From Armatimonadota bacterium (GTDB lineage: Bacteria; Armatimonadota; SYMT01), in contig JBKBRF010000030.1 of assembly GCA_046292385.1 (NCBI GenBank), positions 1 to 64,000 of the forward strand: a DNA stretch of 64,000 nt, in the 5' to 3' direction. How positions within the stretch are numbered: the stretch's first letter is position 1; every line of letters begins with the position of its first letter. Of this stretch, positions 4,528-45,345 are shown piece after piece. The notes under the pieces are model-generated. The model was not told the origin of the DNA and made no database searches. It saw only the letters and a list, made by a program, of their open reading frames with translations. Made by a program: the position numbers and the translations under genes.

Positions 4528-4563
4528 AAAGCCGAACCCTCCGCAGACGAAGGGTTCGGCTTT
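4528..4563. terminator. Hairpin AAAGCCGAACCCT...AGGGTTCGGCTTT between convergent genes (possible bidirectional terminator)
   Basis: 13-bp perfect inverted repeat with short T runs on both strands; also holds the shared repeat core (see findings). Confidence 0.6.
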
Positions 4564-4591
4564 AGCCTTTTACCTTTTGACTTCAGCCTTC
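4561..4591. repeat. Heptamer tandem array (TTTAGCC/TTTTACC/TTTTGAC/TTCAGCC)
   Basis: 7-nt periodicity directly downstream of the DUF1501 stop. Confidence 0.6.
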
Positions 4592-4592
4592 G

Positions 4593-6059
4593 CTAGGCCA
4601 GGATCTCGTTGACGATCTTCCCTTCCACGTCGGTGAGGCGGAAGTCGCGGCCCTGGTAGCGGTAGGTCAGCTTCTCGTGGTCGATGCCGAGCAGGTGGAG
4701 CAGGGTGGCGTTCAGGTCGTGGACGTGAATGCCGCCGTTGACGACGTTGTAGCCGAAGTCGTCGGTCTCACCGTAGGAGATGCCCGGCTTGATGCCGCCG
4801 CCGGCCAGCCACATGCTGTAGCAGCGGCCGTGGTGATCGCGGCCGTAGTTGTCGTCGGTGAGCGTGCCCTGGCTGTAGACGGTGCGGCCGAACTCGCCGC
4901 CCCAGAGGATCAGCGTCTCGTCCAGCATCCCGCGCTGCTTCAGGTCCTTCACCAGCGCGGCCGACGGCTGGTCGGTGTCCTCGCACTGCAGGCGCAGCTC
5001 GTTGGGCAGGTTGCCGTGCTGGTCCCAGCCGCGGTGGTAGAGCTGCACGAAGCGGACGCCCCGCTCCATCAGCCGCCGCGCCAGGAGGCAGTTGGCGGCG
5101 TACGTGCCCGGCTTGCGCGACTCCGGCCCGTAGAGCTCGAAGGTGGAGTCCGGCTCCTTGGAGAGATCCATCAGGTCCGGCACGGAGGCCTGCATCCGGT
5201 AGGCGAGCTCGTACTGGGCGATGCGGGTGGCGACCTCCGGATCGCCGAACTCCTTCGCCGTCATCTGGTTCAGCTTGCCGATGCTGTCGAGCAGGCGGCG
5301 GCGGCTGTCCCGGCTGATCCCGGGCGGGTCGGAGAGGTAGAGCACCGGGTCGCCGGTGGAGCGGAGCTTCACCCCCTGGTGGATGGAGGGGAGGAAGCCG
5401 CTGCCCCAGAGCCGTCCGAACAGCGGCTGGTCGGGACCCTTCTTCGCCGGGAGGGAGATCAGCACGATGTACGCGGGCAGGTTCTGGTTCTCGCTGCCGA
5501 GGCCGTAGGAGAGCCAGGCGCCGAGGCTGGGGCGGCCGGGCTGCTGCGAGCCGGTCTGGATAAAGGTGATCGCCGGGTCGTGGTTGATCGCCTCCGTGTG
5601 CATCGCCTTCAGCACGCAGATGTCGTCCGCCACGGTCGCCGTGTGCTTCAGCAGCTCGCTGAACCAGGTGCCGTTCTTTCCGTGCTGGGCGAACTTGAAG
5701 ATCGACGGCGCCACCGGCAGCGTCTTCTGGCCCGAGGTCATCCCGGTGATCCGCTGGCCCATGCGGATCGAGGCGGGCAGGTCCACCCCCTTGTGCTTCT
5801 GGAGCTCCGGCTTCCAGTCGAACAGGTCGAGGTGGGTCGGCCCGCCGGACTGGTGCATGTAGATGACGCGCTTCGCCTTCGGCGGCACGTGCAGCGCCTT
5901 GAGCGAGCCGTAGAGGCCGTTGCCCCCGGGCGCGGGGGCGGCGGCCGCCCGGTCCTGGTTCAGCAGCGTGGCGAGGGCGGCGACCCCGATCCCGGTGGCG
6001 CCGCGGCCGAACAACTGACGGCGAGTCAACAACAGCTCGCGCTCTCTAATCGGATCCAT
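4593..6059 (-). CDS. DUF1501 domain protein (sulfatase-like fold, Tat-like signal)
   Basis: [78 protein letters not shown]. Confidence 0.92.
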
Positions 6060-6097
6060 CTGGAACAACTCCTCAGGCCGGCGTCGCTGCCGGATCG

Positions 6098-9000
6098 TCA
6101 GTTCTTCGTGATCGTCTCGTCCAGGTTCAGCAGCACGCTCGCGATGGAGGTCCACGCCGCCAGCTCCGCCGGGTCCAGCTTCTTGTTCCGATCCGACTCG
6201 CCCACGCTCAGCAGCTTTTCCGCTTCCTTGGGGTTCTTCCGGAACTCCGCGAGCTGCTGCTCGTAGGTGTCGAGCAGCACGCGCAGCTCTTCGTTGCGCG
6301 GCTGCCGCGCCAGCGCCAGCCGGAAGGCGTAGCGGATGCGGTCCCGCGGCATGGCGGCCACTTCCGTCATCAGCCGCTCCGCCAGCTTGCGGGACGCCTC
6401 CACGTAGGTGGGATCGTTCATCAGGACCAGCGCCTGGAGCGGCGTGTTGGTCACGGAACGGGCTACCACGCAGAACTCGCGCTCCGGCGCGTCGAACGTC
6501 TGCAGCGCGGGTGGTGGACTGGTCCGCTTCCAGAAGGTGTAGAGGCTGCGGCGGTAGAGCGCGTCGCCCTTGTCCTGCTGGTAGGTCTGCGCGGTGAAGT
6601 CGCCGCCGAACGCGATCTCTTCCCAGAGGCCCTTCGGCTGGTACGGCTTCACGGAGGGGCCGCCCAGCTTCTCCACCAGGGTCCCGGCCACGAAGAGCGC
6701 CTGGTCGCGGATCATCTCCGCGGAGAAGCGGTAGCGCGGCCCACGGGCCAGGAGCCGGTTCTCCGGATCCCGCTCCAGCAGCTCCGGCGTGGCGGCCGAC
6801 TGCTGCCGGTACGCGGCGGAGGTGACGATCAGCTTCTGCATCGCCTTCACGTCCCAGCCGGTGCGGACGAACTCGGTCGCCAGCCAGTCGAGCAGCTCCG
6901 GATGGGTGGGCGGCTCAGCCTGCAGGCCGAAGTTCTCCGGCGTGCGGACCAGTCCGCCGCCGAAATACTTCTGCCAGTAGCGGTTGACCGCCACGCGAGC
7001 CGTGAGCGGATGGTCCGGCTGCACCAGCCACTTCGCCAGGGTGAGGCGATTCGGCGTGCCGTCCGGCAGGGGAGGCAGCACGGCGGGCGTGCCGGGCTCC
7101 ACCTTTTCGCCCTTCTTGTCGTACTCGCCTCGCAGCAGCAGGTGCGTCTCGCGCGGCTTCTCCATCTCTTCCATCACCATCGTGGTGGGGATGGAGGCGT
7201 CGAGATCCGTGCGGGCCTTCCGCTCGGCGGCGAGCTCCGCCGCGAGCGGAGCGTAGGTCGGATCGGCGTGCCGGAGGTAGCGCTCGCGGAGGAGCGTCTT
7301 CTGCTCCGCGCTGCGCTTCGCCGGCTCCACCGCCAGGGCCCCCAGCGCGCCCTCGCCGGAGACGAGCGAGGCGACTTCCGCGGCGGTCAGCTCCCGGCCG
7401 TAGACCCGCAGCTCGTCGATGGCGCCGGTGAACGGCGCACCCGGGTTGCGACGGCCCACGTGGGTGGGCGTGGCGGTCCGGATCGACTCGGTCAGCGTGT
7501 CGTGAGTGACTTCCAGCTCCGCCGGCTTGCCGTTCAGGTAGACCTTCACCCCGGCGCCCTTGCTGGAACCGTCGTAGGTCACGAAGACGTGGGTCCACTT
7601 GTTCACTTCGACCCCGCCCTTCGTGTTCACCCGAATGGCGTTGCCGGGGAACGAGCTCAGGATGTGGACGAAAGCCCTGCCGTCGTTCAGGTAGAGGTCC
7701 CACCCGCGGAACGCGGCGGCGTCGTTCATGCGGGAGACGACCGTCATCGCCTGGTTGCCCGCCGGCTTCACCCAGGCGCCGTAGGAGAACTTGTCGGTCC
7801 GCTCGAAGTCGAAGGCGCCGCCGAGGTCGAGGTAGCTCTGCCCGTCGAGCTGGAGTGCGGAGCGGAGCTGACCTTCGCTGCGGCCCGGAGTGCCGTGCGC
7901 CGCTACTACCGGGTGGGCATCCATGCCGTCCGCCGGCGCGGTGCCGCTCGCTTCATCGAAGGCGTAGTGGGCGAGAAGCCCCTGGTAGAACTCCGGACCG
8001 CCGGCGATCACCGCGGTCGCCCCCTTCTCCCAGGCAGGGAGGGCGGCGTCAGCGGCGGCGAGGCGCTCCTGCACCTGCTTGTCGAGCCCCGCGATGCGGC
8101 GGTCGTGCTCCGCCAGGCGCGCCGTCTGCTCCGGCGTCGGCACCTTGATGAACGGCTTCGCATTGCCGCGGAAGCCGTCCAGCCCCTCTTCCTTGATCGT
8201 GTTGAAGAAGGCGTAGAGCTGGTAGAACTCCTTCTGCGAGATCGGGTCGTACTTGTGATCGTGGCACTGCGCGCACTTGGTGGTGAGCGCCATGAAGACG
8301 GTCGAGGTGGTGTCGACCCGGTTGATCACGTACTCCGTTTGGTACTCTTCCGGAATCGCGCCGCCCTCGAAGTTGATCGGGTGGTTCCGGTTGAAGCCGG
8401 TCGCGACCTTCTGGTCCAGCGTCGGGTTCGGCAGCAGGTCGCCCGCAAGCTGCTCCACCACGAACTGGTCGTACGGCATGTTGCTGTTGTAGGCGCGGAG
8501 CACCCAGTCCCGCCACGGCCACATGTCGCGGTGGCTGTCGATGTGGTAGCCGTGCGTGTCGGCGTAGCGGGAGAGGTCGAGCCAGTCCTGCGCCATCCGC
8601 TCCCCGTAGCGGGGGGAGGCGAGGAGCCGGTCGACCAGCTTCTCATAGGCGTCCGGCGAGGGATCGCCGACGAACGCCTCCACCTCATGCACGGTGGGCG
8701 GAAGGCCGGTCAGGTCGAACGAGAGGCGGCGGATCAGCGTGCGGCGGTCGGCCTCCGGAGAGGGCTTCAGGCCTTCCCGCTCCAGGCGAGCGAGGACGAA
8801 GCGGTCGATCGGGTTGCGCGGCCACTTCGTGTTCTTCACCGCCGGCAGCTCCGGCCGCGTCGGGGAGACGAATGCCCAGTGCTTCTCGTACTGCGCGCCC
8901 TGCTCGATCCAGCGCCGCAGGATCTCGACCTGCTCCGGCTTGAGCGTCTTCTTGGTGGCGGCGGGCGGCATCACGCGGGCGTCGGTGGCGACGACCCGCT

Positions 9001-9292
9001 TCAGCAGCTCGCTCTCCTCCGGCTTGCCGGGGACCACCGCCTTCTTGCCGGAAGCAGCGGGACTGATGGCGCCCTCGAAGGTGTCGAGGCGCAGCTTCGC
9101 CAGGCGGGTCTTGCTGTCGAACCCGTGGCAGGTGTAGCAGTTCTCCGCCAGGATCGGCTTGACGTCGCGGTCGAACTCGACCTTCTGCGCCGCCTCGCCG
9201 CGCATCGCGGCGGCGGAGACGGAGCCGCCGATCGCCAGGGTGAGGCCCGCAAGGACGAGCAGGGGGTTTTTCAGGTGGACGCTCGCACGCAT
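6098..9292 (-). CDS. Planctomycete-type cytochrome c / DUF1549 / LamG / DUF1553 protein
   Basis: Signal peptide; CYTCH and CAQCH heme motifs; [19 protein letters not shown]; LamG-like insert (GAIDELRVY); [15 protein letters not shown]. Confidence 0.92.
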
Positions 9293-9525
9293 GATTTCAG
9301 TCTAAACTCCGTCTTGCTCCCCGGCAAGCCGTGCAACACTCTCTCTACGTTCGGAGGCTCGGCAGTACGTTCCGAGCAGCGGGGGCCGGCTCCGGCCTGC
9401 TGTACGACACCGCAGCCGGCCGGTCTCCTCCGCTTTCGGGCGTTCCGCGCCGAATGACGCGTGCTGTAACCCGATAGGGGCGCGCGCTGGCGGCGGCAGG
9501 CGGCCGGGTCTACCCCGCCGCCTCT

Positions 9526-10587
9526 CTAACGCGAGAGGAGGGCGCGGAGGGCGCTGATCGGGGCGGCGCCGCCGGTGTCGCCCTCTTCCGAGGCGACCGG
9601 CGCGGAGACACCGACCACGCGGCCGCTGGAGAGCAGGTAGACCGGCCCGCCGACCATCTCCGCCTGCACCACGCGATCCAGCTCCAGCTCCGGGCGGCCA
9701 GCCGCGTCGGTCCGCCGCTGTCGCAGGGCAACCAGGCGGGTGGGGGCAGCGAGGGGAACGGCCGGCCGCCCCGGCGCGGGCCCGGCGCCGGCAGCGAACC
9801 CGAGCACGCCGAGCGGCTCGCTCTCTCGCAGGGCGTCCGAATCCCCGAGCGGCACCGGAGGCGGCAGCCCGGCGCCGCAGTAGAGCAGCGCCACGTCCCG
9901 GACCGTATCGGCGCGGCCGATCTCCGCGGTCACGCGGCGGCCGCGAGGGATGATCACGGTGAGGCGCGTCGCGCCTTCGACCACCCGGGCGGCGGTAGCC
10001 ACGTGACTCGGACCGATGACGAACCCCGAGCCCTCGCGGGTGCCGTCCGGCGTCACCGCCAGCACGCGCACCACCGACTGCCCGAGCTGCCGCGACCAGC
10101 GCGCTGCCTGCGCGGGGGAGGTGTCCACAGCCGGGGCCGGGCCTCGCTCCGGCTCCGTCGAGTGGATCGGCTCTCGGGTCGTCACTCCCGGGGCGGGCTC
10201 GCCGGCGTGGTCCGCGCCCGGGCTTGCAGGCGTTTCCGGACCCAGGGCGGCCTGCTCGCCGCCCCTGGGCGCGGCGCCGTCCGGTGCGGAAGAAGGGTCG
10301 TCGGGCTCGCTGGGGGGCGGAACCGGGAGCCCGAACTCGCGCTGGCGAGGCCCCCGGTCTCGATCTCGGGGAGACGGAGCCGGTCGCGCGAACTGCTCCA
10401 GGTCGGGATCCGCGCCGGCGGTCGCGGGCGCGGGGGCGGGGGGCGGCTCCTCGTCACCGCGCAGCGTGCCGATGATGGCCCCCGCGGCGAGGAGCAGCAT
10501 CGCACCCGCGACCAGGGTGATCGCGCTCGGCCCGCCGCTCCGTGGGGTCCGATCTGCCCGCGCCTGTCTTTGCTCTCCTCGCGCCAC
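9526..10587 (-). CDS. Membrane-anchored trypsin-like (S1C) domain protein, probably catalytically inactive
   Basis: TM segment, Pro-rich linker, GSGFVI, DVALL, LGDSD, GGPV...GRVVGV; the His and Ser positions read R and V. Start uncertain (GTG 10587 with GGAG). Confidence 0.7.
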   Translation of the reverse strand: MARGEQRQARADRTPRSGGPSAITLVAGAMLLLAAGAIIGTLRGDEEPPPAPAPATAGADPDLEQFARPAPSPRDRDRGPRQREFGLPVPPPSEPDDPSSAPDGAAPRGGEQAALGPETPASPGADHAGEPAPGVTTREPIHSTEPERGPAPAVDTSPAQAARWSRQLGQSVVRVLAVTPDGTREGSGFVIGPSHVATAARVVEGATRLTVIIPRGRRVTAEIGRADTVRDVALLYCGAGLPPPVPLGDSDALRESEPLGVLGFAAGAGPAPGRPAVPLAAPTRLVALRQRRTDAAGRPELELDRVVQAEMVGGPVYLLSSGRVVGVSAPVASEEGDTGGAAPISALRALLSR

Positions 10588-10724
10588 CTTCAACTCCGTC
10601 GAGAATCCATGTGAGCCGTTCCGCGCCCGCGCATGCGTTTCCTTGTGGGGGAGGCCGCGGCCGGGCGGCACGGGTGAGGGTGTTAGCGGTAACGATCCCC
10701 CTCCGAATCTCGTCTATTAACCTC

Positions 10725-20751: not shown

Positions 20752-20851
20752 CAGTTGCAGGTTAGCAGGTTGACAGGTTGCAAGTTGCAGGTTAAGCCCT
20801 CCGGCGGCTGGGGTTCGGAACTTGAAACCTGCCAACCTGGAACTTGTTAAC
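20752..20851. repeat. Inverted CAGGTTG-type tandem arrays around a CTCCG-N6-GGGGTTCGG core
   Basis: 7-8 nt (g)CAGGTT(g) units on the left, AACCTG units on the right; homologous to 26495-26593 and 45254-45345. Confidence 0.85.
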
Positions 20852-20861
20852 AGAATCGCAC

Positions 20862-23810
20862 TCAGTCGCCCCTTCGATGGCGAGGCGCAGTCACGGGCTC
20901 GGCCACCTGAAGGTAGAGGATGCTGTGCGCCATGCCTCGCTGAGCGATGAATTCGACGTCGTTGTGGTCGCCCATCGGCTCGTCCTGGATGCCGAGACCC
21001 TGCAGCGCTACGTAGACGCCGTTGTCCCGGAACTCCCGATTGGCGACCCCGTACCACCGGCTGGCGAGGGCGATGTCGTCCCGGTACCAGCAGGCGCCGA
21101 CCGCGGACGCGCTCTCGGTCCACTCGTCGTAGTAGCGGCGCTGGAGCCATCCGTCGTTGATGGTGCGGTCCGCCACCGTCATGTAGCTGAAGTAGCACGA
21201 CTTCCGGTTCGCCTCGTTCACCGTTCCGACGGCGATCAGGTGCAGACGCCCCTCCGGCCCGGCCAGCGGCCCGCTCTCGAAGAGCAGGGTCGGACGGCGG
21301 GTCCCCCCGGCGCGGCCCGCCTCGCCCATCACCCAGCGGCGCCCGGCTTCCGCCAGCGCGCCATCCGGGAGCGCGGTGAACGTGCGCAGCAGCCAGCGGC
21401 TCTTTCGGCGGGCATCCTGGTCTTCCCCACAGGCGAGGACCAGCGTGTTCCGCAGCGGGTCGACGCACGGGCCGACCGGCACGGTGCTGCGGATCCCGAG
21501 ACCGCGCTCCGGGCCGGCGCCGGAGGTCGACCATTCCCGACAGGTCAGCTCCCGGTCCGCGCCGCGCCAGAGGAAGAGCAGCAGCCGCTCTCCCCACGAG
21601 ACGGCGCTGACCGACGCCCCGGCGGTCTCGTCCAGTAGATAGGCATCGCCGGTCGCGCGCCCGTCCGGGCCAACCTGCCGCGCTCGCAGCCCCTCCGCGG
21701 TGGGGTAGAAGAGCCAGAGGTCACCCGCGTGCGCCACCGCGTAAGGATCGCCGGTGGCGACGTCCTCGGAGACCGTCACCGGTTCGGACCACCGACCGTT
21801 CCCGCCCAGCACCCGCGCCGTCACCGGACCGGGGATCGGGGCCGCCGCTTGCCGCTCCTCCGGCGTCATCAGCTCGTCCGCCTTTGCGTCTCGCGGCGCG
21901 CGGACATAGAACGCGTAGAGCCGGTCCGCGTGGCTCGCCAGGAACGGCGCGTGGCCGGTGCGGTCCTGCGCGTCGAAGTCGCGGCCCGGCATCAGGATGC
22001 GGCGCACCCCCGCGGTGGTGCTGTAGCCGTAGTTGATGTCGGCCCGCACGTTCTCTTCCCCGAAGATGCCGTTCCAGTTCCAGTCGATCAGATTGGTGTC
22101 GCCGTCCGCCTTCAGCCGCCAGTGGTACGGCGGCCCGGCGAGGAACGCCGCCTCCTCATACTTCAGCGGCAGCCGTTCGGAGAGCTTCCGCTCGTCGAAG
22201 ACCAGGTGGGCGAGCTTGCCCAGGCTGTAGCCGATCGCCTCCGCCTTTCCGCCGAGCTGGTAGCTGTAGGCGTAGTTCATCAGGCTCGGGTAGGCGGGAC
22301 ACCAGCCGCCCGGCCAGAAGCCCTCATGCGGGAGCCCAAGCTGGTGCCCGAACTCGTGGATGAAGGTGGCGTAGAGCGCGCGTCCGCCCGCGCTGCCGCG
22401 GTCGGAGAGCATGTCGGCCTGCCCGCCGCCCGCGTTCGGGGCGAGCATCCAGTGCCAGGCCCCGCGCATTCGCGCCGGGAAGTGCGCGTCGCCGACGGCG
22501 CGCCAGTCGCGACCGTTGACCTGCTCTGCCGGCAGCGCCGGCTCCAGGACGTAGTGCAGGCGGATGCCGCTCTTTCCATCCGGGTTCGGCACCGGGAGAC
22601 CGGCGTAGTAGCGGACCGCGGCCTCCATGTCGGTGCGGGTCCGCTCCTCGTCCAGGTCAGCCGCGCGCTGGATGCGGACCAGGATATCGGCGTGGTCCGG
22701 GGTGCAGCCGAGCGCCGCGAGATCGAAGCCGCGCCAGCCGTTCACCTCCCAGCCGTCGAGCAGCCCGTCGTTGTCGGTATCCCTCCGCACGGGGTCGCTG
22801 CCCGCGGACTGCTCCGCCGCGGCGTCCAGGCCGTCCGAGTCGGGATCGGGATCGCCGTCCCGGTAGGCGAGATAGACCAGCACGTCACCGCCTGCGTGCC
22901 GCTCGTCGTCCCGGCGGAAGCGGACCAGGTCCGGCCGGCCGTCGCCGTTCAGATCTCCGCTCAGCAGCGTGGACGGCCGCTCCCAGCGGAGCTCGGAGAG
23001 CTCCGCGGCGCGGTCTGCCGCCCGCCCGGGTGCGGCCGGAAGCCCCAGCAGCGCGCGGGAGAGTGCCAGGCCGTCGTCCTTCGACCGCGTTCGATCGGCC
23101 CGCCGCTTTCCGGTGTCCGCGGAGAAGGCGCTCTCTCGCACCCGCTGCTCCGCGTCGGTCCAGACCACCTCCGCGCGGCCGGCGCCGGCGTCCGGGTCGC
23201 GGCCGCTCCAGCGGAGCACGGCGGCGGAGGGCGCCGCGCCGAGGTTGAACCTCCGGACGAGCGGCTCCGCCGGCTCCTCGGAGCGGGGGAGCGTGACGAG
23301 AGCCCCTTCGCCGGTGTGGGCGAGCAGGGTGAAGCGGACCGACTTCCGCCCCGCCGCGGCGGAGAGCCAGCGCACGTCGCTCCACTTCCCGGGCACCGCG
23401 GTCAGCACCCGGGAGCGCGTCTGGGCACCGTCCAGGCCTTCCGCCAGGTGCAGCGTGCCGTCCGCGGAGAGCGCCAGCACCTCCGCGCGGCGGTCGCCGT
23501 CCAGGTCGAGCGCGGTCGCCGCCACGCAGCCGCCGCCGAAGTCGCCGAGCACCCGCCGCGGCGGCAGCGACTTCTCCCCGCCGGCGTTCCGTGCCAGGTC
23601 GAGCCACCCGCGGCCGCGCGGCCAGAGGGAGAGGAGATCGTCGAACCCGTCGCCGTCGACATCGGCCACGATCGGGATCCGCGGCCCGGCGCCGAGATCG
23701 CGCGCCCAGGGAAACGGCGGCGTCACCCGCGTACGGCGCGGCGCCGCCGCAGACGCGGCCGCAGCGACACAGAAGAGGGCAAGGAGGAGCAGGGATCGAG
23801 AAGGCGGCAT
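20862..23810 (-). CDS. Secreted protein with FG-GAP/VCBS repeats, Ca-binding DxDxDG repeats and a metzincin zinc-peptidase motif
   Basis: Signal peptide; DVDGDGFDD, DLNGDGRPD, DTDNDGLLDGWE; HEFGHQLGLPH and SLMNY. Confidence 0.75.
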   Translation of the reverse strand: MPPSRSLLLLALFCVAAAASAAAPRRTRVTPPFPWARDLGAGPRIPIVADVDGDGFDDLLSLWPRGRGWLDLARNAGGEKSLPPRRVLGDFGGGCVAATALDLDGDRRAEVLALSADGTLHLAEGLDGAQTRSRVLTAVPGKWSDVRWLSAAAGRKSVRFTLLAHTGEGALVTLPRSEEPAEPLVRRFNLGAAPSAAVLRWSGRDPDAGAGRAEVVWTDAEQRVRESAFSADTGKRRADRTRSKDDGLALSRALLGLPAAPGRAADRAAELSELRWERPSTLLSGDLNGDGRPDLVRFRRDDERHAGGDVLVYLAYRDGDPDPDSDGLDAAAEQSAGSDPVRRDTDNDGLLDGWEVNGWRGFDLAALGCTPDHADILVRIQRAADLDEERTRTDMEAAVRYYAGLPVPNPDGKSGIRLHYVLEPALPAEQVNGRDWRAVGDAHFPARMRGAWHWMLAPNAGGGQADMLSDRGSAGGRALYATFIHEFGHQLGLPHEGFWPGGWCPAYPSLMNYAYSYQLGGKAEAIGYSLGKLAHLVFDERKLSERLPLKYEEAAFLAGPPYHWRLKADGDTNLIDWNWNGIFGEENVRADINYGYSTTAGVRRILMPGRDFDAQDRTGHAPFLASHADRLYAFYVRAPRDAKADELMTPEERQAAAPIPGPVTARVLGGNGRWSEPVTVSEDVATGDPYAVAHAGDLWLFYPTAEGLRARQVGPDGRATGDAYLLDETAGASVSAVSWGERLLLFLWRGADRELTCREWSTSGAGPERGLGIRSTVPVGPCVDPLRNTLVLACGEDQDARRKSRWLLRTFTALPDGALAEAGRRWVMGEAGRAGGTRRPTLLFESGPLAGPEGRLHLIAVGTVNEANRKSCYFSYMTVADRTINDGWLQRRYYDEWTESASAVGACWYRDDIALASRWYGVANREFRDNGVYVALQGLGIQDEPMGDHNDVEFIAQRGMAHSILYLQVAEPVTAPRHRRGD

Positions 23811-24238: not shown

Positions 24239-25627
24239 ATGCCCAAGCGACAGAACCTCCTCCTCATCGGGATCGACAGCCTGTGGGCCGACCACATGAG
24301 CTGCTACGGCTACCACCGTCTCACCACTCCGCACATCGACCGCTTCGCCGGCGAGGGAGTGCTCTTCGAGCGCAACTACTCCCCGCATATCCCGACGACC
24401 AGCGCTTATGCGAGCATGCTGACCGGGACCGACTGCTTCTCCAACCAGGTGGTGGCGCTGCGGCACGAGGGCGGGCTCACCGAGCGGGTGCGGACGCTGC
24501 CGGAGATCCTGCGCGAGGCGGGCTACACCTCCACCTGCGTCGGCTTCAGCGGCAACCCCAGCTCACGCGGGTTCGACGAGTACCTCACCTATCCGGGGTG
24601 GGGGAGCTGGGCGGAGCGGCCCAGCCGAAAGGCAGAGAGCCTGAACGAGGTGACGCTGCCGGAGCTGGACCGCCTCGCGGCGGGAGAGCAGCCGTTCTTC
24701 CTCTTCCTGCGGCACATGGACCCGCACAGCCCATACCTGCCGCCGGAGCCGTTCGAGCATCTCTTCTACAGCGGCGATCCGTGCGATCCCTCCAAGAGCT
24801 CCATCAAACCGGTGCTGGAGTTCAAGCCGATGCGGGACTACTTCGCCACCTGGATGCCACCCGGCATCACCGACGCGGAGTACGTCATCGCGCAGTACGA
24901 CGGCGCGGTCGCCTACATGGACGCGTGCATCCAGCGGATCTTCCAGCGCCTGGAAGAGCTGGGGATCGCCGACGACACGCTGGTGGTGCTGAACGGCGAC
25001 CACGGCGAGACGCTGATGGACCACGAGTGCTATTTCGACCACCACGGGCTCTACGACTGCACCCTGCACGTGCCGCTGATCCTGCGCCACCCGAAGCTGC
25101 CGCGGGGAGTGCGCGTGCCGGGCTACACGCTCCACCAGGACCTGGTCCCGACGATCCTGGAGCTGCTGGAGCTGGAGGCGCCGGACCGGTTCGACGGCAG
25201 GAGCCTGCTGCCGCTGGTGAGCGGAGAGCGGGCGAGCAACTGGTCGGACTTCTACCTGACGGAGTGCACCTGGATGCGGAAGCACGGCTGGCGCGCGCCG
25301 GAGTGGAAGCTGATCCAGGCGCTGGAGCCGGACTTCCACTTCAAGCCGGAGGTGGAGCTCTACAACCTGGTCCGGGATCCCGGCGAGAACCGGAACCTGG
25401 CGGAGGCGGAGCCGGGCATCGTCGACGCGCTGCGGGCGCGGATGGAAGCCTGGATCGCCCGGCGAGAGGCGGAAACCGGTCTCCGGAACCCGATCTACAC
25501 CAACCTGAACTGGCACGGCAGCACCACACACCGCGGGCCGTTCACCAGCTCTCAGCAGGCATACGATACGCTGCACCTCGGAGACCCGGGCGCGGCGGCG
25601 CGCCTGCAGGCCAAGGACGCGAAATGA
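24239..25627 (+). CDS. Sulfatase-like hydrolase (alkaline phosphatase superfamily)
   Basis: LLIGIDSL, TTPHIDRFA.EGV.F, HMDPHSPY, YDGAVAYMD, GDHGE, ELYNL..DP.E..NL. Confidence 0.9.
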   Translation: MPKRQNLLLIGIDSLWADHMSCYGYHRLTTPHIDRFAGEGVLFERNYSPHIPTTSAYASMLTGTDCFSNQVVALRHEGGLTERVRTLPEILREAGYTSTCVGFSGNPSSRGFDEYLTYPGWGSWAERPSRKAESLNEVTLPELDRLAAGEQPFFLFLRHMDPHSPYLPPEPFEHLFYSGDPCDPSKSSIKPVLEFKPMRDYFATWMPPGITDAEYVIAQYDGAVAYMDACIQRIFQRLEELGIADDTLVVLNGDHGETLMDHECYFDHHGLYDCTLHVPLILRHPKLPRGVRVPGYTLHQDLVPTILELLELEAPDRFDGRSLLPLVSGERASNWSDFYLTECTWMRKHGWRAPEWKLIQALEPDFHFKPEVELYNLVRDPGENRNLAEAEPGIVDALRARMEAWIARREAETGLRNPIYTNLNWHGSTTHRGPFTSSQQAYDTLHLGDPGAAARLQAKDAK

Positions 25628-26490
25628 AAGAGCAGACCCACCCCACCCGGCGCGCCTTCCTGGCGCTCTCCGCAGGAGCCCTCCTCGGCGCCGTGCCCGC
25701 GGCCGCGCAGGAGCGCGCCGGCGCGGAGATCGTTTCCCGCTACGTGAAGATCGGGGAGATCCCGGCGCTCGTCGTCTCGCCACGGCAGACCCGCGGGCGC
25801 AGCCTGGTGATCTGGCTGACCGGCTTCAGCGGCAGCAAAGACTCGGTCAAGAGCCACCTGCAGGAGCTCGCGGCGCGCGGCTTCGTCGCCATCAGCTTCG
25901 ATCCGTACCAGCACGGCGACCGGCGCATCGAGGAGCAGGCGCAGCTCGTCTCCCGCGTGCGCGGCAACATCCGGCGCTACTTCTGGCCGATCCTCGCCCG
26001 CAGCGCGGAGGAGGTGCCGCTCATCATCGATTGGGCGGTGAAGGAGCTGGGCGTGAAGGACGAGGTGGGCGTGGGCGGTATCTCGATGGGAGGCGACATC
26101 TCGGTCGCCGCCGCGGGGGTCGACCGCCGCGTCCAGGTCGTCTCCGCGGCGGTCGCCACGCCGGACTGGCTCCGTGCCGGGTCGTTCGAGCCGCCGGGTG
26201 AGCCGGACGCCGCCGCGCAGGCCGACTTCGACCGCCGCAACCCGGCCACGCACCTCCGCGCTTACCGGCACAAGCCGGCGATCGCGTTCCAGAGCGGCGC
26301 GGACGACCGCCAGGTGCCGCCGGACGCGGGGGAGCGCTTTGTAGCGGCGCTGAAGCCGATCTACGGCGCCGACGCGGACCGGCTGAAGGTGAACCTCTTC
26401 CCGAACGTGGGCCACGCGTTCCCGCCGGAGATGTGGACTGCCTCCCTCGCCTGGTTCGAGCAGCACCTGGGCAAACAGCCGAGTCCGTAG
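25624..26490 (+). CDS. Tat-exported alpha/beta hydrolase (esterase/peptidase S9-like)
   Basis: TRRAFL Tat signal, GISMGG elbow, GADD.QVP, VGH; ATGA overlap with the sulfatase stop. Confidence 0.85.
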   Translation: MKEQTHPTRRAFLALSAGALLGAVPAAAQERAGAEIVSRYVKIGEIPALVVSPRQTRGRSLVIWLTGFSGSKDSVKSHLQELAARGFVAISFDPYQHGDRRIEEQAQLVSRVRGNIRRYFWPILARSAEEVPLIIDWAVKELGVKDEVGVGGISMGGDISVAAAGVDRRVQVVSAAVATPDWLRAGSFEPPGEPDAAAQADFDRRNPATHLRAYRHKPAIAFQSGADDRQVPPDAGERFVAALKPIYGADADRLKVNLFPNVGHAFPPEMWTASLAWFEQHLGKQPSP

Positions 26491-26494
26491 CATG

Positions 26495-26593
26495 AGTTCG
26501 CAAGTTGCAGGTTGGCAGGTTACAGGTTTCGAACCCCGTCGTCGCGGAGCAAACCTGTTAACCTGCAACCTGCAACTTGCTAACCTGCAACTG
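26495..26593. repeat. Inverted CAGGTTG-type arrays with core (opposite orientation to the 20752 copy)
   Basis: Reverse complement aligns with 20752-20851, including CTCCG-N7-GGGGTTCG. Confidence 0.85.
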
Positions 26594-26602
26594 GTGTTAT
26601 CG

Positions 26603-37111: not shown

Positions 37112-37184
<73 letters not shown>

Positions 37185-37202
37185 CTTAACACACTTCCGG
37201 CC

Positions 37203-37275
37203 GCCGACGTAGCTCAGTTGGCAGAGCAGCTGTTTCGTAAACAGCAGGTCACCGGTTCGAGCCCGGTCGTCGGCT
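37203..37275 (+). tRNA. tRNA-Thr (CGT), CCA not encoded
   Basis: GCCGACG/CGTCGGC acceptor stem, anticodon arm GCTGT-TTCGTAA-ACAGC, GGTTCGAGCC. Confidence 0.95.
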
Positions 37276-37422: not shown

Positions 37423-37686
37423 ATGCCAGAAGTACGGTGTACCGTTTGTAACTGCGAGTACTGGGACGAGGGGAACGCCTGCTCCGCGGGGCAGATCCTG
37501 ATTACGGCGGGAGGGGTCGGGACGGATGACCCGGCGGGCGAGCAGGCGGCGCGGCTGCCGGCGACGCCGATCCCGACCGCCGCCTACAGCCTCTGCCGGA
37601 CCTACACGCCGCGCGGCTCGGAGGATCCGGACGAGGTGGAGACCGGCTCGGAGGTGGAGGCGAATCTCGATCTGCCCTTGCGCTGA
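37423..37686 (+). CDS. DUF1540-like small Cys-rich protein
   Basis: VRCTVCNCEYW...CSA..I.I...CRTY; GGAGG RBS. Confidence 0.75.
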   Translation: MPEVRCTVCNCEYWDEGNACSAGQILITAGGVGTDDPAGEQAARLPATPIPTAAYSLCRTYTPRGSEDPDEVETGSEVEANLDLPLR

Positions 37687-39387: not shown

Positions 39388-39629
39388 CCCGGATTCCCTC
39401 CTGAGGTGCGGTGTGCCCCGCACGTTACAGATCACCTGTCAGGGTCGACCGGGTAGGCCGACGAGCCGGGATCGCCCGGCGACACGGTTTACCTGAGTAT
39501 TCTACGACACCTTGCCCCCGGTCGGGTTTCGCCAATCCGGCTCCATGGGGCCGCAACTCCCCGCGCGCCGCGAACTCTCAGTAGGTCAAAGCCGGAGCCT
39601 TGGATCGATCAGTCAACCCGGAAACTGGT

Positions 39630-42230
39630 ATGCGCCCCCATCCGCTGCTGTTGTCGCTCGTTCCCGCCGCCCTCCTCGCCGGGGCAGCCTTCGCCCTCGC
39701 CGCGGAGGCGCCCGCCCCGTCGCCGGCGCCTTCGGCGGAGCAGGCGCGGTTCTTCGAGAGCAGGATCCGGCCGGTGCTCGTCTCCCGCTGCGGAGCGTGC
39801 CATGGCGCGAAGGAGCAGAAGGGCGGGCTGCGGGTCGATTCGCGGGCGGCGCTGCTGAAGGGCGGCGCGCGCGGCCCGGCGGTGCTGCCGGGAGAGCCGG
39901 ACGGAGGCACGCTGCTGGCGGCGCTGACGCATGCGGACGGCGTGCCGAAGATGCCGCCGACGGGTAAGCTCTCCGACCGGGAGCTCGCCGACCTCCGCCG
40001 CTGGATCGAGACGGGCGCTCCGTGGCCCGAGACGCGGAAGCCGTCCGGCGGCGAGGCGGACGGCACGCACTGGTCGTTCCGTCCGATCCGGCGGCCCGCG
40101 GTGCCCCGCGTGAAGAACCAGGCGTGGGTGCGGAACCCGATCGACGCGTTCGTCCTGGCGGAGCTGGAGCGGCGCGGCCTCTCCCCGGCACCGGAGGCCG
40201 ACCGCCGCACCCTGATCCGGCGCGTTACGTTTGACCTGACCGGTCTCCCGCCGACCCCCGCGGAAGTGCAGCAGTTCCTCACCGACCGCTCTCCGGACGC
40301 CTACGAGACACTGGTGGAGCGGCTCCTCGCCTCCCCGCGGCACGGAGAGCGCTGGGGGCGCCACTGGCTCGACGTGGCGCGCTACGCGGACTCCAACGGG
40401 ATGGACGAGAACGTCCACTACGGCAACGCCTGGCGGTACCGGGACTACGTGGTGCGGTCGTTCAACCAGGACAAGCCGTTCGACCAGTTCATCCGGGAGC
40501 AGCTCGCGGGCGACTTGCTTCCGGCCTCGGAGCAGCCGGCGCGGCACGAGCAGCTCATCGCCACCGGGTTCCTCTCCATCGGCCCGAAGCTGATCTCGGA
40601 GGTCGACAGCCAGAAGGTGGAGATGGACATCATCGACGAGCAGATCGACACGGTCGGCCGCGCCTTTATGGGGCTGACCCTCGGCTGCGCGCGGTGCCAC
40701 GACCACAAGTTCGACCCGATCTCCGCCAAGGACTACTACGCGCTCGCCGGGATCTTCAAGAGCACGCAGACGATCGACGCCTGGAACAAGCCGCGGATGT
40801 GGTTCGAGCACTCGATCGCCACCGAGGCGGACCTCGCCCGCAAGGCGGAGCACGAGCGGAAGGTGGCGGCGCAGAAGAAGACGATTGCAGAGGTTGGCGC
40901 CCGGGAGACGGAGCTCTGGAAGCAGGCGAACCCCGGCGCCGAGCTGCCGAAGCAGCCGGAGACGGCATTCCGCGCCGAGGGCCAGGCGGAGCTGAAGCGC
41001 CTGCGCGAGGAGCTGGCCGCCCTGGAGAAGGCGGCCCCGGAAATGCCGGCCTGCATGGGAGTGCGGGACCAGAAGGTGGTCGACGTTCCCGTCCACCTCC
41101 GCGGCGACTTCCTCACCCTGGGAGAGATGGTGCCCCGCCGCTTCCCCGCCGTGCTCGCGGGCACCGACCAGCCGCCCCTTCCGGAGACGCGCAGCGGCCG
41201 CCTGGAGCTGGCGCAGTGGATCGCCAGCCCGGAGAACCCGCTCACCGCCCGCGTCGCGGTGAACCGCGCCTGGCGCTGGCACTTCGGCCAGGGACTGGTC
41301 CGCTCGACCGACAACTTCGGCATCCTTGGGGAGAAGCCGTCGCACCCGGCGCTGCTCGACTATCTCGCGTGGGCGTTCTCATCTCCCGCCCGCGAAGGCG
41401 GGACAGAGAGACAGAGAGACGGAGAGAGCCGTACCCGCAACGCAGGGTCAGCTCCGCGGGAGGCGGGGGTTCGGAATCGCTCTGTCCCTCTGTCGCTCCG
41501 TCCCTCTGTCGCAAACGGTCCCTCTGTCTCTCCGTCGTCACCGGGAGGTATGGGATGGAGCGTTAAGCGGCTGCATCGGCTGATCGTGCTCTCCAGCACT
41601 TACCGGATGAGCAGCCGTCACGACCCGCGGGCGGCGGAGGTCGATCCGGAGAACCGGCTGCGGTGGCGGTTCGACGTGCGGCGGCTCCAGGCGGAGGAGA
41701 TTCGGGACGCGCTGCTCTTCACCGGCGGGCTGCTCGACCCGGCGATGGGCGGACCGGCGCTGTCGCTGAAGAACCGGGAGTACGTCTTCGACCACACCTC
41801 GAAGGACAACACGAAGTACGACAGCCGGCGGCGGTCGCTCTACCTGCCGGTAGTACGGAACCACCTCTACGACGTATTCCAGCTCTTCGACTTCGGCGAC
41901 GCCAGCCTGGTGGAGGGGAACCGGCCCACGACGACCGTGGCCCCGCAGGCGCTCTTCATGTTGAACGCCGACCTGGTGATGGACGCGGCGGACGCGCTGG
42001 CGGGCAAGGCGCTCGAGCGGAAGCGGCTCACGCCGGAGCAGCGGGTGCGCGTTCTCTACTTCGAAGCCTACGGCCGCTACGCCACGCCGGAGGAGACGGC
42101 GCGCTCCCTGAAGCTGCTCTCCGACTTGGAACGGACCGTTCCGGGCGAGGGAGAGGCCCGGGAGCGCAGGGCCTGGGGGGCGCTGGCACACACCCTGGTG
42201 GCTGCCAACGAGTTCATCTTCGTGCGCTGA
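39630..42230 (+). CDS. Planctomycete-type cytochrome c / DUF1549 / DUF1553 protein with in-frame repeat insertion
   Basis: FFESRIRPVL, CGACH, WLDVARYADS, CARCHDHKFDP, RRSLY, PQALFMLN. Confidence 0.92.
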   Translation: MRPHPLLLSLVPAALLAGAAFALAAEAPAPSPAPSAEQARFFESRIRPVLVSRCGACHGAKEQKGGLRVDSRAALLKGGARGPAVLPGEPDGGTLLAALTHADGVPKMPPTGKLSDRELADLRRWIETGAPWPETRKPSGGEADGTHWSFRPIRRPAVPRVKNQAWVRNPIDAFVLAELERRGLSPAPEADRRTLIRRVTFDLTGLPPTPAEVQQFLTDRSPDAYETLVERLLASPRHGERWGRHWLDVARYADSNGMDENVHYGNAWRYRDYVVRSFNQDKPFDQFIREQLAGDLLPASEQPARHEQLIATGFLSIGPKLISEVDSQKVEMDIIDEQIDTVGRAFMGLTLGCARCHDHKFDPISAKDYYALAGIFKSTQTIDAWNKPRMWFEHSIATEADLARKAEHERKVAAQKKTIAEVGARETELWKQANPGAELPKQPETAFRAEGQAELKRLREELAALEKAAPEMPACMGVRDQKVVDVPVHLRGDFLTLGEMVPRRFPAVLAGTDQPPLPETRSGRLELAQWIASPENPLTARVAVNRAWRWHFGQGLVRSTDNFGILGEKPSHPALLDYLAWAFSSPAREGGTERQRDGESRTRNAGSAPREAGVRNRSVPLSLRPSVANGPSVSPSSPGGMGWSVKRLHRLIVLSSTYRMSSRHDPRAAEVDPENRLRWRFDVRRLQAEEIRDALLFTGGLLDPAMGGPALSLKNREYVFDHTSKDNTKYDSRRRSLYLPVVRNHLYDVFQLFDFGDASLVEGNRPTTTVAPQALFMLNADLVMDAADALAGKALERKRLTPEQRVRVLYFEAYGRYATPEETARSLKLLSDLERTVPGEGEARERRAWGALAHTLVAANEFIFVR
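41379..41552. repeat. In-frame insertion: inverted octamer arrays (GACAGAGA / CTCTGTCC) around a CTCCG-N9-GGGGTTCGG core
   Basis: 58 codons where the paralog at 6098-9292 has 3; the octamer also forms an intergenic array at 43954-44002. Confidence 0.8.
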
Positions 42231-42242
42231 GGAAGCACCGGT

Positions 42243-43701
<1,459 letters not shown>

Positions 43702-43703
<2 letters not shown>

Positions 43704-43775
43704 GGGATGAGGGCGGAAGGATGAGGGATGAATCCGAACCCTCCGTAGACGGAGGATCCTGCTCCTGCTCCTGCT
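43702..43775. repeat. Heptamer array (GAGGGAT) + core (CCGAACCCT-N7-CGGAG) + CCTGCT x3
   Basis: Directly after the DUF1501 stop; core matches 4539-4559 in reverse orientation. Confidence 0.7.
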
Positions 43776-43953
43776 CGCTGGCGACCTTCGGGGCTTCGGC
43801 ACGTCCTGGTGAGGTCCGAAGGGTTCCGCCGCCCCTCCAGGGCGGGTGATTGGGGACGGCGGAGGTCCGGGGGCTGCGCTGCGCTTGCACCCCGGCTATC
43901 GTCTCGCGCCCCTCCGGGGCGCCATCCCCGCCATCCCCGCCATGCTCGCTGCG

Positions 43954-44002
43954 CTCCGTCCCTCTGTCTCTCCGTCCCTCTGTCTCTCCGTCTCTCCATC
44001 TC
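43954..44002. repeat. Octamer tandem array CTC(C/T)GTC(C/T) x6
   Basis: 8-nt periodicity visible; same unit as in the 41379 insertion. Confidence 0.8.
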
Positions 44003-44019
44003 AGGGGCGGCCGTCCGCG

Positions 44020-45219
44020 CTAGGCGGTCTCGCCTTCGAAGAGCTGGGGCAGGAGCTCGGAGGCTTTATCGATGCGCCAGCGGGCGTCGTCGATGGCACG
44101 CTCGTCGAACGGAAGGATGCCGCGAGTCTGGGGCGCTTCGCGGCTGCCGGTGATCATGAACGGCATCCAGCCCGCCTCGGCCCGCCGCTCCTCCGTGTAG
44201 GTGGCATGGTCGACGACGACCATGATCCGGAAGTCGTCGAGCAGCCCGATCCGGTCAAGGAGTGTGCCGAAGAAGCGCTCGTCGATCCGCTTTACGGCGT
44301 CGAGCTTCGCTTCCCAGTCGCCGTCCAGACCCGCCTCGTTCGGCGACTCGAGGTGGACCAGGCAGAAGTCCCGCTCCTGCAGCGCGGTCAGCGTGGCCCG
44401 CGCCTTCATGGCGTAGTCGGTGTCGAGCGAGCCGGTGGCGCCGGGAACGTCGAGCACGCGCAGGCCGCTCAGACGCGCCAGCCCCTTGACCATCGCGCTG
44501 CCGGCGACGCACGAGCCGCCGACCCCGTGCCGGAACCCGAACCCCTGGAGCTGCGGGGCGCGGCCCGGCGACCAGGGCCACACCATGTCGGCGGTGGGCC
44601 GCCCGTCGTCGCGCAGCCGCTTGTTGAACGGGTGCTCCGCCAGCACCTCGGCACTGTCCCACATCACGCTCACCAGCTGCTCCGCGCGGTCGCCGGTGGG
44701 GAACACCTCTCGCAGCGGGCGGCCCGCCGCGGCGTACGGAGAGGTGCACGCAATCCCGTCCGGACCGCCGCGCCAGACCAGCACGTGCCGGTAGCCGGAG
44801 CCCGGGTAGAACTGCAGCGTGCGGTGCCGCAGCGACTGCTGCACGTGGCGCACCAGCTCCCGGCCGACGTTCTTGCCCAGCTTGCCGGCGGTCGGCTCCT
44901 GCAGCACGGCGCCGTCGGTATGGACCAGGTTCAAGCTGAACGCGGTGTCGCCGTGGTCGAGGTCGATCTCTACCGCCGCGGCTTCCAGCGGTCCCCGGCC
45001 GGTCCAGTGCTCCACCGGATCGAACCCGAAGAGCCCCATCAGTGCCGCCTCGGGGTCGCCCTTCCAGTCCGGCGGCAGCGTCTGGACCACTCCCACGCGC
45101 GCCTTGCGGGCCATGGCGGTCAGGTGCTCGCCCGCCCCGACGATCAGCGGTGTACGGTCGTCGAGCGCCTTGATCGGGGCATCGACCGCCCCGTCGAGGA
45201 TCACCATCACGTATTTCAT
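44020..45219 (-). CDS. ApgM-like cofactor-independent phosphoglycerate mutase homolog with degenerate active site
   Basis: MKYV.VILDG..D, RTPL, GRGPLEAA, YRHVLV, VPGATG.LDTDY..K, D F.LVH.E.P, DH. Confidence 0.8.
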   Translation of the reverse strand: MKYVMVILDGAVDAPIKALDDRTPLIVGAGEHLTAMARKARVGVVQTLPPDWKGDPEAALMGLFGFDPVEHWTGRGPLEAAAVEIDLDHGDTAFSLNLVHTDGAVLQEPTAGKLGKNVGRELVRHVQQSLRHRTLQFYPGSGYRHVLVWRGGPDGIACTSPYAAAGRPLREVFPTGDRAEQLVSVMWDSAEVLAEHPFNKRLRDDGRPTADMVWPWSPGRAPQLQGFGFRHGVGGSCVAGSAMVKGLARLSGLRVLDVPGATGSLDTDYAMKARATLTALQERDFCLVHLESPNEAGLDGDWEAKLDAVKRIDERFFGTLLDRIGLLDDFRIMVVVDHATYTEERRAEAGWMPFMITGSREAPQTRGILPFDERAIDDARWRIDKASELLPQLFEGETA

Positions 45220-45253
45220 GGGGCTGTCACGATATCGGGGAGCGGGAGGCGCT

Positions 45254-45345
45254 GTTCCAGGTTTGCAGGTTGCAGGTTAGCAAGTTGGGCACCGCTCGAT
45301 GGAGTCCGGAACCTGCAACCTGAAACCTGCCAACTCGCTAACTAC
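45254..45345. repeat. Inverted CAGGTTG-type arrays, third copy, degenerate core
   Basis: CAGGTT units, CACCG-N6-GGAGTCCGG, AACCTG units; lies between purC and the ApgM-like gene. Confidence 0.8.

Follow-up and report, generated by a model that had tools for sequence, protein, structure and literature searches.

The 64-kb window analysed here (the whole stretch of DNA, from a genome of 69% GC) carries a dispersed set of short repeat elements, in which arrays of tandem 6- to 8-mers, referred to as arms and lettered by type, are joined to small hairpin cores. The arms commonly meet the core at a conserved 8-base segment, which we refer to as the word. The features of the window are:

4528..4592, no strand assigned: symmetric form, a palindromic core of 28 nt (4532-4559) that has the word at each end; fold z -4.0 and -6.2
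4560-4592: type A heptamer arm following the symmetric core, abutting the stop of a DUF1501 gene (4593-6059, minus strand)
6098..9292, minus strand: paralog of the host gene at 39630..42230, with an unfilled 7-residue loop (same-window empty-site control)
20754..20852, plus strand: type E arm, core and word, inverted type E arm; fold z -2.9 and -3.4; ends 10 nt past the stop of gene 20862-23726 (minus strand)
26494..26594, minus strand: type E arm, core and word, inverted type E arm; fold z -9.7 and -6.7; begins 4 nt past the stop of gene 25624-26490 (plus strand)
39630..42230, plus strand: host gene of the in-frame copy, PSCyt1 + DUF1549 + DUF1553, 866 aa, frame open through the insert
41402..41536, plus strand: type G octamer arm, core and word, inverted type G arms; in frame in the PSD1/DUF1553 loop
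43701..43756, minus strand: type B heptamer arm (43701-43731) that overlaps the stop of a DUF1501 gene (42306-43703, plus strand), with word and hairpin core (43732-43756)
43757..43810, minus strand: 'C block', a hexamer arm (43757-43776) with a conserved leader
43830..44003, no strand assigned: REP-like palindrome block, followed by a type G arm (43954-44003); apgM (44020-45219, minus strand) has its stop 18 nt from this arm
45254..45345, plus strand: pair of type E arms and a degenerate word, between apgM and purC (45346-46272, minus strand) and abutting the purC stop; fold z -4.3 and -2.7
54056..54333, no strand assigned: type D inverted heptamer arms with their own hairpin core, a sibling without the word
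59100..59253, no strand assigned: a second such type D sibling, also with its own hairpin core and without the word
63005..63182, no strand assigned: type F inverted heptamer arms, a sibling without the word

The type G arm at 43954-44003 completes a mosaic between convergent genes, and several of these modules recur elsewhere in the genome: C blocks are joined through the word to A, B, I or E arms, the REP-like block at 43830 is of the same kind as one preceding a RAYT gene on C22, and the type F unit of 63005..63182 brackets four-helix-bundle genes on C25 and C49.

The original prediction described a core, CTCCG-N6-9-RGGGTTCGR, and exact matches are indeed present at 4539-4559(+), 20799-20818(+), 26529-26549(-), 41452-41474(+) and 43734-43754(-); a sixth, degenerate copy at 45290-45309 also holds up, sitting between two heptamer arms. 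Dinucleotide shuffles of the window yield a mean of 0.07 cores and a maximum of one, with none of 100 shuffles reaching five. All of the copies are flanked by tandem arrays, which differ as had been described (three CAGGTTG-type pairs, and one each of a TTTTACC-type arm, a GAGGGAT-type arm and an octamer pair), and in five of the six an arm lies 1-10 nt from a called stop codon; element ends blur into stop codons. The exception is the copy at 41402-41536, which lies in frame within the open reading frame 39630-42230 and which, like the hexamer arm at 43757-43776, had been overlooked.

The core as drawn is not supported by genome-wide comparison. Its strict pattern is found at 26 sites, with an array directly behind it at 20 of them as judged by eye, but the conserved piece is its 3' half, the word, and not the CTCCG half, which is one strand of a small hairpin present in a subset of copies. 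The word lies at the inner end of tandem arms in 318 cases, 212 of them exact and 106 with a mismatch, and only 17 of the 318 have the full core. An exact word followed by an arm occurs 191 times, compared with 0-3 times for each of five control words (one reversed, four scrambled), and the arm families number 82-277 arrays each compared with 0-4 in a triplet-shuffled genome; slippage alone is therefore inadequate, as had been argued. The word is at the inner edge of 47/85 A, 57/75 B, 20/67 E and 9/58 G arms, against a background of 3.4%, whereas it is at the outer edge of only two A, five B, no E and three G arms, and five arm families begin a few bases from it. Other arms mostly lack it in this genome (C, 3/136; D, 0/58; F, 2/66; H, 0/26), and since these families have spread here, the word is not required for spread. 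Type E, the commonest arm type in the genome, forms pairs both with a detected word (40) and without one (26).

The arms are polar, stop codons lying at their outer end and the word at their inner one. Outer ends lie within 15 nt of a stop for 37/107 A, 39/104 B, 76/275 E and 66/119 F arms, compared with only 0-2 inner ends per family. Elements occupy 29% of spacers between convergent genes, 19% of co-directional and 8.5% of divergent spacers, and among 236 two-sided spacers there are facing pairs and no back-to-back arrangements. At least nine arm unit families coexist and exchange in this genome, and the number of units varies from copy to copy. A symmetric palindromic form of 27-28 nt is represented by 4532-4559 and by type I elements, and a 20-21-nt hairpin of another kind occurs at 32 places in the genome, some of them within A arms.

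Exchange of arms at a fixed point, as originally proposed, is seen where the core is nearly constant. Among 56 C-block copies, 10 of the 19 core pairs differing by no more than one base carry different arms, and the fraction of nearest neighbours with the same arm is 0.43, compared with 0.46 when shuffled, so arm type is unlinked from core lineage. A matching arm stands opposite an A or B arm in 5 of 75 cases with a C block and in 17 of 46 without, indicating that halves are replaced rather than added to. Outside the word, cores differ by family. The elements are a dispersed, non-autonomous family, as had been suggested.

The in-frame copy provides a second view of exchange. It forms part of a 62-residue loop that is seven residues long in most unfilled paralogs, and an in-frame palindromic insert is present at 19 of 53 DUF1553 loci, with single-frame matches at every locus. 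All 19 sit in a single loop of a single paralog family, where the core is found in two orientations and the arms in two combinations; the G and B arrays that fall within called genes are all in DUF1553 loops, except for one match in an acidic tract. In a 38-row quick tree of 19 filled and 19 empty paralogs (with 14 loci lacking a parsable loop and one long-branch row excluded), AU tests reject the filled paralogs as a clade (p-AU 9e-58), and also reject clades of the seven G-plus-B copies (p-AU 3e-7) and of the five inverted-core copies (p-AU 5e-8); an 88-row tree is likewise a quick tree only, and our conclusions draw on the smaller one with its AU tests. In divergent paralogs the element is found repeatedly at a single codon position, with inversions and arm changes, and domain shuffling among paralogs could be another source of the scattered filled and empty states on the tree. 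Gene conversion would be expected to co-convert the flanking codons, but Mantel tests comparing core with flank identity gave null results in all 11 windows, and synonymous identity beside the insert is lower in filled (0.42-0.50) than in empty paralogs (0.53-0.73). Near-identical short flanks are confined to a few hand-picked paralog pairs, and the search for flank tracts in paralogs is confounded by GC-rich codon bias. Third-codon GC drops beside filled sites only (0.71 versus 0.92 upstream and 0.83 versus 0.97 downstream). Around intergenic arms we saw no mutational halo, the GC drop being absent beyond five codons before them.

Related genomes extend the exchange to a second genus. The 40 relatives searched include no genome of the same genus and gave no orthologous filled/empty pair from a close strain, and the purC-apgM spacers of same-family genomes and of eight metagenome loci contain unrelated sequence. 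A genome of the same family and another genus (G005) has a homologous core and word in the same DUF1553 loop, followed by a D or B arm; the word is joined to D arms 19 times there and once here, and to B arms twice there and 67 times here. In the loop inserts of G006 (L137, L139) and G005 (L140), the arm unit is that of a four-helix-bundle cassette in the same genome (L067, L081), and the word abuts an arm at none of 18 four-helix-bundle loci of the relatives. The strict B-arm junction pattern is absent from all 40 relatives, which suggested a word specific to this genome, but the G005 matches, with looser spacing, overturn this. The A-arm junction pattern was found at 32 loci across genome contigs, none in an array, and the symmetric core at three sites here and at one site each in four of 300 genomes from this phylum, again none in an array. 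Contigs of four sequencing runs gave mostly noise at 80% likeness; one contig from the X3 run bridges 44977-45487, with 17 substitutions and 16 gap positions.

The original prediction envisaged copies enclosing a gene for a small helical protein or a nuclease, and such copies exist elsewhere in the genome. All eight PF05635 four-helix-bundle genes have arrays on both sides, of types A, B, C, D, F or H, the arms being inverted in seven and direct in one, with the word at an arm-gene junction in three; no such gene with E or G arms turned up in this genome. All four GxxExxY nuclease genes are bracketed by their own 8-9-mer arms, and at one of these genes the word stands outside both arms. Searching PDB sequences with a single four-helix-bundle protein returned only the uncharacterised 2RLD, and one of four such proteins scanned matches the Avd model, at 33 bits compared with a cut-off of 80. 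Other candidate enzymes were rejected. DUF559 has no matches; two small Ssn-like GIY-YIG genes have hairpin repeats of their own, without tandem arms or an arm-word junction; and none of five Y1 transposase (RAYT) matches is flanked by the core palindrome, there being other palindromes instead. Ahead of one RAYT gene lies a B arm whose word is degenerate, and the palindromes of the RAYT genes themselves join mosaics in this genome.

The elements work like BIME/REPIN mosaics, Rickettsia palindromic elements and S23p intervening sequences, and correspond in full to none of these. Calling them undescribed was too strong for some parts, in that inverted heptamer pairs near stops (PMC4692102) and heptamers beside an S23p gene (PMC4990558) are already reported. 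The former, from Xanthomonas and Nostoc (Rehm et al. 2015), are intergenic, are described there as having one unit type per genome, and were read as G-quadruplexes (PMC4692102); the description of these pairs names no junction word, mixed arms or gene-bearing forms, in contrast to the exchanging unit families here. The Coxiella account describes S23p intervening sequences as a four-helix-bundle reading frame between complementary termini, with upstream tandem heptamers in strain-variable number, located in 23S rRNA and excised by RNase III (PMC4990558). A four-helix-bundle frame between complementary termini is found in seven of eight gene-bearing cassettes elsewhere in the genome, but in no window copy, and all copies examined lie between or inside protein genes, none in 23S rRNA; the rRNA search covered 16S, which is not assembled. 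REP, BIME and REPIN elements are characterised as short palindromes, inverted doublets and module mosaics, mostly extragenic with some in genes (PMC3116915, PMC3733652). The elements here are similarly short, palindromic, largely extragenic and often inverted doublets, but the arms are tandem 6-8-mers and not REP units, no RAYT gene is flanked by the core, and the class consensus, inspected by eye from 32 nt before to 14 nt after the word, has no GTAG or CGTC tag. Rickettsia palindromic elements, as summarised in PMC10969869, are palindromic inserts of ~150 bp translated in frame in many unrelated host genes; the in-frame insert here is likewise palindromic, but confined to one loop of one paralog family. 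The Ssn GIY-YIG nucleases with NTS/SRM repeats, whose small gene is portrayed as flanked by a genome-filling repeat family (PMC11893778), are a model for finding a cognate protein, although the small GIY-YIG genes here are not flanked by arm-word repeats. Unlike the Avd diversity-generating retroelement, there is no reverse transcriptase (no PF00078 matches in this genome, which is 98% complete). Elhai et al. in 2008 reportedly described Nostoc SDR as hairpin elements of 21-27 nt, often embedded in heptamer arrays and inserted precisely. The symmetric 27-28-nt form here is comparable, but most cores are asymmetric and carry whole arm blocks, with the partner arm usually replaced. SDR are noted from Nostocaceae only (PMC5861425).

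We propose, with a probability of about 0.5, that these are modular intergenic repeats, likely gene-less derivatives of cassettes, reshuffled by homology-guided copying at the word. The 6-8-base arms are interchangeable at this shared 8-base junction, and the elements would descend from small cassettes with a four-helix-bundle or GxxExxY nuclease gene between inverted repeat arms. We assume this direction, the converse being that genes landed in existing arms. Spread and swapping of halves would proceed at the DNA level by gene conversion or template switching, with the word as crossover point and perhaps with help from cassette proteins, the four-helix bundle binding and the PD-(D/E)XK nuclease nicking; copies would persist where tolerated, just past stop codons and in a permissive protein loop.

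A doubtful alternative, the original proposal in its strongest version, is a dedicated enzyme system (four-helix bundle plus GxxExxY nuclease, or an unknown partner) for which the word is a recognition or priming site that is cut, and a new tandem arm written or grafted. The start of arms a few bases from the word in five families is consistent with this, as is retention of the word between two genera while the partner arm changed; an 8-base word is also short for RecA-type exchange, and the third-codon GC drop at filled sites might reflect error-prone local synthesis. However, that drop is absent beyond five codons before intergenic arms, C, D, F and H arms are abundant without the word, about one-third of arm-adjacent words (106/318) have a mismatch, and there is no reverse transcriptase in the 98% complete genome. 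We regard as similarly tentative the fuller proposition of an undescribed, protein-driven system with the word as its cut-and-graft site, whose four-helix-bundle and GxxExxY proteins build or exchange tandem-repeat arms and home whole units into one codon position of divergent paralogs.

It is rather unlikely that the core is instead a very small mobile palindrome, SDR-like or REP-like and possibly moved by RAYT, inserting at the apex of pre-existing tandem-repeat hairpins of any unit, with the arms as targets and not as its own parts. Such insertion would account for the symmetric form, for E pairs with and without the word, and for D arms lacking it here and having it in G005, and the five Y1 transposase matches and the other hairpin, at 32 places and partly within A arms, are compatible with it. 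But 70 of 75 C-block cases lack the partner arm, which does not resemble insertion into an intact hairpin, the cores vary from family to family outside the word, and the RAYT genes (0/5 flanked by the core palindrome) and the tagless class consensus do not fit.

It is improbable that the elements are RNA 3'-end structures selected by the host, as terminators or stabilisers, which converged on a shared hairpin word, and the structured-RNA reading in the original prediction is not supported. Arms do begin at stop codons, convergent spacers are the most often occupied (29%), and at 4528 T-rich sequence follows a strong hairpin. However, there is no strand bias of G-T versus A-C wobble pairs (71:63 relative to the word and 95:92 relative to the mRNA strand), E pairs have the word on either strand of the mRNA (24:21), and, except in type F, arms fit their own partner no better than those of other copies. 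The B-plus-C form folds no better than shuffles (z +1.1 and +0.1), and 19 copies are within coding sequence. At gathering score, Rfam 15 finds only two tRNAs in the window, with otherwise sub-threshold hairpin matches. Finally, independent slippage arrays beside a chance motif are refuted: 69% GC and differing unit numbers would suit them, but the observed cores (5 versus 0.07), arrays per family (82-277 versus 0-4) and word-arm junctions (191 versus 0-3 for control words) do not.

Long 6-9-base tandem repeats have been noted in bacteria, in a paper that describes their origin as lacking an accepted explanation (PMC4692102), and the S23p four-helix-bundle proteins are described as having no known function (PMC4990558). 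This genome is a natural experiment in which unrelated arms replace each other at a fixed junction, and a protein loop has been filled anew, with inverted elements and with new arms, in divergent paralogs and in two genera; such repeats can repeatedly lengthen proteins by 50-60 residues. For binding, cleavage and exchange, it points to a short substrate (arm plus word) as well as to candidate proteins. If the protein-driven cut-and-graft reading were true, it would supply the missing machinery behind unexplained bacterial heptamer repeats.

The pattern CTCCG-N6-9-RGGGTTCGR, which the original prediction took as the core of a dispersed element, has five exact matches in the window (0.07 expected), and a degenerate sixth copy is present as well; tandem arrays were found beside all six, and five of the six start 1 to 10 nt from a called stop codon, in line with the claim that most copies do. 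The core is conserved only in part, however. Its 8-base 3' half (hereafter the word) is constant, whereas the CTCCG half, which makes up one side of a small hairpin whose loop is four bases long, accompanies just 17 arm-adjacent words. Scanning the genome (G000; 7.04 Mb in 91 contigs, 69% GC, 98% complete; the window is positions 1-64000 of contig C30) gave 26 occurrences of the strict pattern, and the word, with at most one mismatch, directly precedes an arm 318 times (E 109, B 99, A 76, I 24, G 10), exactly so in 212 cases. Word-arm junctions number 191 with the real word and 0 to 3 with each of five control words (one reversed, four scrambled). A symmetric form of the core (e.g., 4532-4559) is a 27- to 28-nt palindrome with the word at either end. 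The repeat pattern in the window is real and modular.

Window features, with one reference copy of each arm type (H, I, and K arms lie outside the window), are:
4560-4592, A arm
20754-20793, E arm
37112-37275, tandem tRNA-Phe(GAA) and tRNA-Thr(CGT)
37423-37686, short DUF1540 gene after the tRNA pair
41402-41427, G arm
43701-43731, B arm
43757-43776, C arm
59100-59125, D arm
63005-63036, F arm

Nine arm families have 82 to 277 arrays each in the genome versus 0 to 4 in a triplet-shuffled genome; type I arrays are under-called in this count and number 29 by a separate one. Arms are polar: by our own calling of 5546 genes, a stop codon is no more than 15 nt from the outer end of 37/107 A, 39/104 B, 76/275 E, and 66/119 F arms, and from the inner end of 0 to 2 per family. 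Of the 236 spacers whose arms run both ways, 177 have facing arms of the same family, 59 have other families only, and none has arms back to back. At their inner edge, 47/85 A, 57/75 B, 20/67 E, and 9/58 G arms are bounded by the word, which does not mark this edge of C, D, F, or H arms in this genome. Genome-wide, body third-codon GC is 0.935 in genes ending at an arm versus 0.912, suggesting that arms favor long-resident genes. A 9-base tandem repeat (2.7 copies, 43920-43943) sits between a REP-like block and the G arm of a mosaic.

Arms are also interchanged. In the 56 copies with a parsable leader, the C block (leader, C arm, and hairpin core) meets its partner arm through the word, and that partner is of type A (31), B (22), I (2), or E (1). 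Arms differ in 10 of 19 pairs of C-block cores that differ by at most one base, and nearest-neighbor cores share an arm at a frequency of 0.43, compared with 0.46 when shuffled (p 0.67). A matching arm faces an A or B arm in 5/75 cases with the C block and 17/46 without it; because that arm is mostly missing where the block is present, one half has been replaced, with the word as the joint.

Translation runs through the element at 41402-41536, which forms part of a loop of the DUF1553 domain (gene 39630-42230). Such a loop is parsable at 39 of the 53 DUF1553 loci in the genome, 19 filled (54 to 67 residues, one longer) and 20 empty (7 to 13), with matches confined to one frame at every locus. 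Filled loops are of G-core-G form (six, plus one decayed), a core-inverted variant (five, one assignment doubtful), or G-core-word-B (seven). Loops have been refilled repeatedly: on a tree of flanks without the insert (38 rows, quick search, one long-branch row left out), the filled state involves at least seven label changes across well-supported branches, and a single clade is rejected for all filled loops (p-AU 9e-58), the G-plus-B type (3e-7), and the inverted type (5e-8). The loop-type core occurs mainly in DUF1553 loops, and two intergenic copies were examined. A parsable loop is present in 95 of 120 database homologs, 66 being short; longer loops occur in 26 homologs from other organisms, many with periodic peptides. 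Only in filled paralogs does third-codon GC drop sharply within ~12-15 codons of the insert (e.g., 41350-41400 and 41540-41580): upstream it is 0.71 against 0.92 across 12 codons (p 2e-6), and downstream 0.83 against 0.97 (p 7e-6). The fall recurs at a few loci in G005, of the same family but another genus (0.69 versus 0.85), and is not seen in the relative G006.

Copies enclosing a gene for a small helical protein or nuclease, as the original prediction anticipated, are present elsewhere in the genome. All eight PF05635 four-helix-bundle genes (four checked as TIGR02436) are bracketed by arrays (F, F, H, C, B, D, A, and B; seven inverted pairs, one direct), and all four GxxExxY (PF13366) genes lie between 8- to 9-mer arms; at one of these four the word is located beyond both arms. 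The word is at the arm-gene junction in three of the eight loci, whose proteins are related (arms B, B, and A), and none of the four-helix-bundle genes found in the genome has E or G arms. The arms at G000:C7:141205-141453 are direct, and arm polarity is reversed at G000:C34:61883-62191 and in locus L079 relative to L080. By eye, arms flank each side of 14 of the 18 four-helix-bundle loci examined (of 20 matches) in three genomes of the same family, and the word abuts an arm in none of the 18. The arm unit is itself word-like in L076 (G006:C585) and L073 (G005:C3), and from these sequences the word may have originated as a relic arm unit.

Some relatives' loop inserts reuse the arm unit of their own genome's four-helix-bundle cassettes. 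Among the best loci, the parsed loops that are long at the DNA level number 7/11 in G005, 6/14 in G006, and 1/24 in the relatives G001-G004. The G005 loop has a homologous core and word, followed by D or B arms; word-arm combinations number 19 versus 1 in G000 for D, 2 versus 67 for B, 0 versus 54 for A, and 0 versus 52 for E, with none in the remaining six genomes from this order.

We give a probability of about one-half to the elements being gene-less derivatives of repeat-armed cassettes, which would spread and exchange halves through homology-guided copying at the word, the cassette proteins perhaps having some role. Co-conversion of DUF1553 flanks was not demonstrated, which counts against such copying. 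That a dedicated enzyme acts at the word, where halves are exchanged, is doubtful; no reverse transcriptase is found in this 98%-complete genome. Its five RAYT and two small GIY-YIG genes do not fit as cognate enzymes. The latter (C56:27090-27305 and C43:29013-29222) have their own long hairpin repeats on both sides, like Ssn with SRM repeats, and 4440-4476 in the window is a REP-like palindrome of the kind that flanks RAYT genes on C40 and C83, with 282 genomic matches to its 10-base end motif. Entry of a very small mobile palindrome into pre-existing hairpins is unlikely, palindromic as the symmetric core is. A 20- to 21-nt hairpin inside type A arms and other repeat families (32 sites; C4, C7, C9, C17, C42, C47, C49, and others) resembles such an element. 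Least probable of these is a host RNA function, and the structured-RNA part of the original prediction is not supported. Folding is strong for either strand of matched-arm elements (z -2.7 to -9.8), but the B-plus-C form folds no better than expected (z +1.1, +0.1). In 167 matched pairs, G-T oppositions are not in excess over A-C ones (71:63 by word strand, 95:92 by mRNA strand), the word can occupy either strand of the mRNA (24:21 among E pairs), and only in type F does an arm match its own partner better than it matches other copies' arms; these results argue against selection on RNA structure.

Papers on REP/RAYT, S23p, heptamer, Rickettsia, SDR, and Ssn repeats hold precedents for parts of the element (PMC4692102, PMC4990558, PMC3733652, PMC10969869, PMC5861425, PMC3936711, PMC3116915, PMC11893778). 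The elements have the full set of membership characters of none of the repeat families compared. Full-text literature searches, a scope that most subscription journals fall outside, yielded no paper that describes in its title or opening abstract lines the junction word, filled DUF1553 loops, or cassettes in which repeat arms bracket a four-helix-bundle or GxxExxY gene at non-rRNA sites. Comparison was also made with the Nostoc small dispersed repeats reportedly treated by Elhai et al. in 2008. The gene-less elements are a variant, partly unexplained, of known mosaic repeats. At least three, and probably four, of the eight cassettes lie between a DUF1553 gene immediately upstream and a DUF1501-like gene that follows (C49, C25, C47, and C7), so that these paralogous operons attract gene-bearing and empty forms alike.
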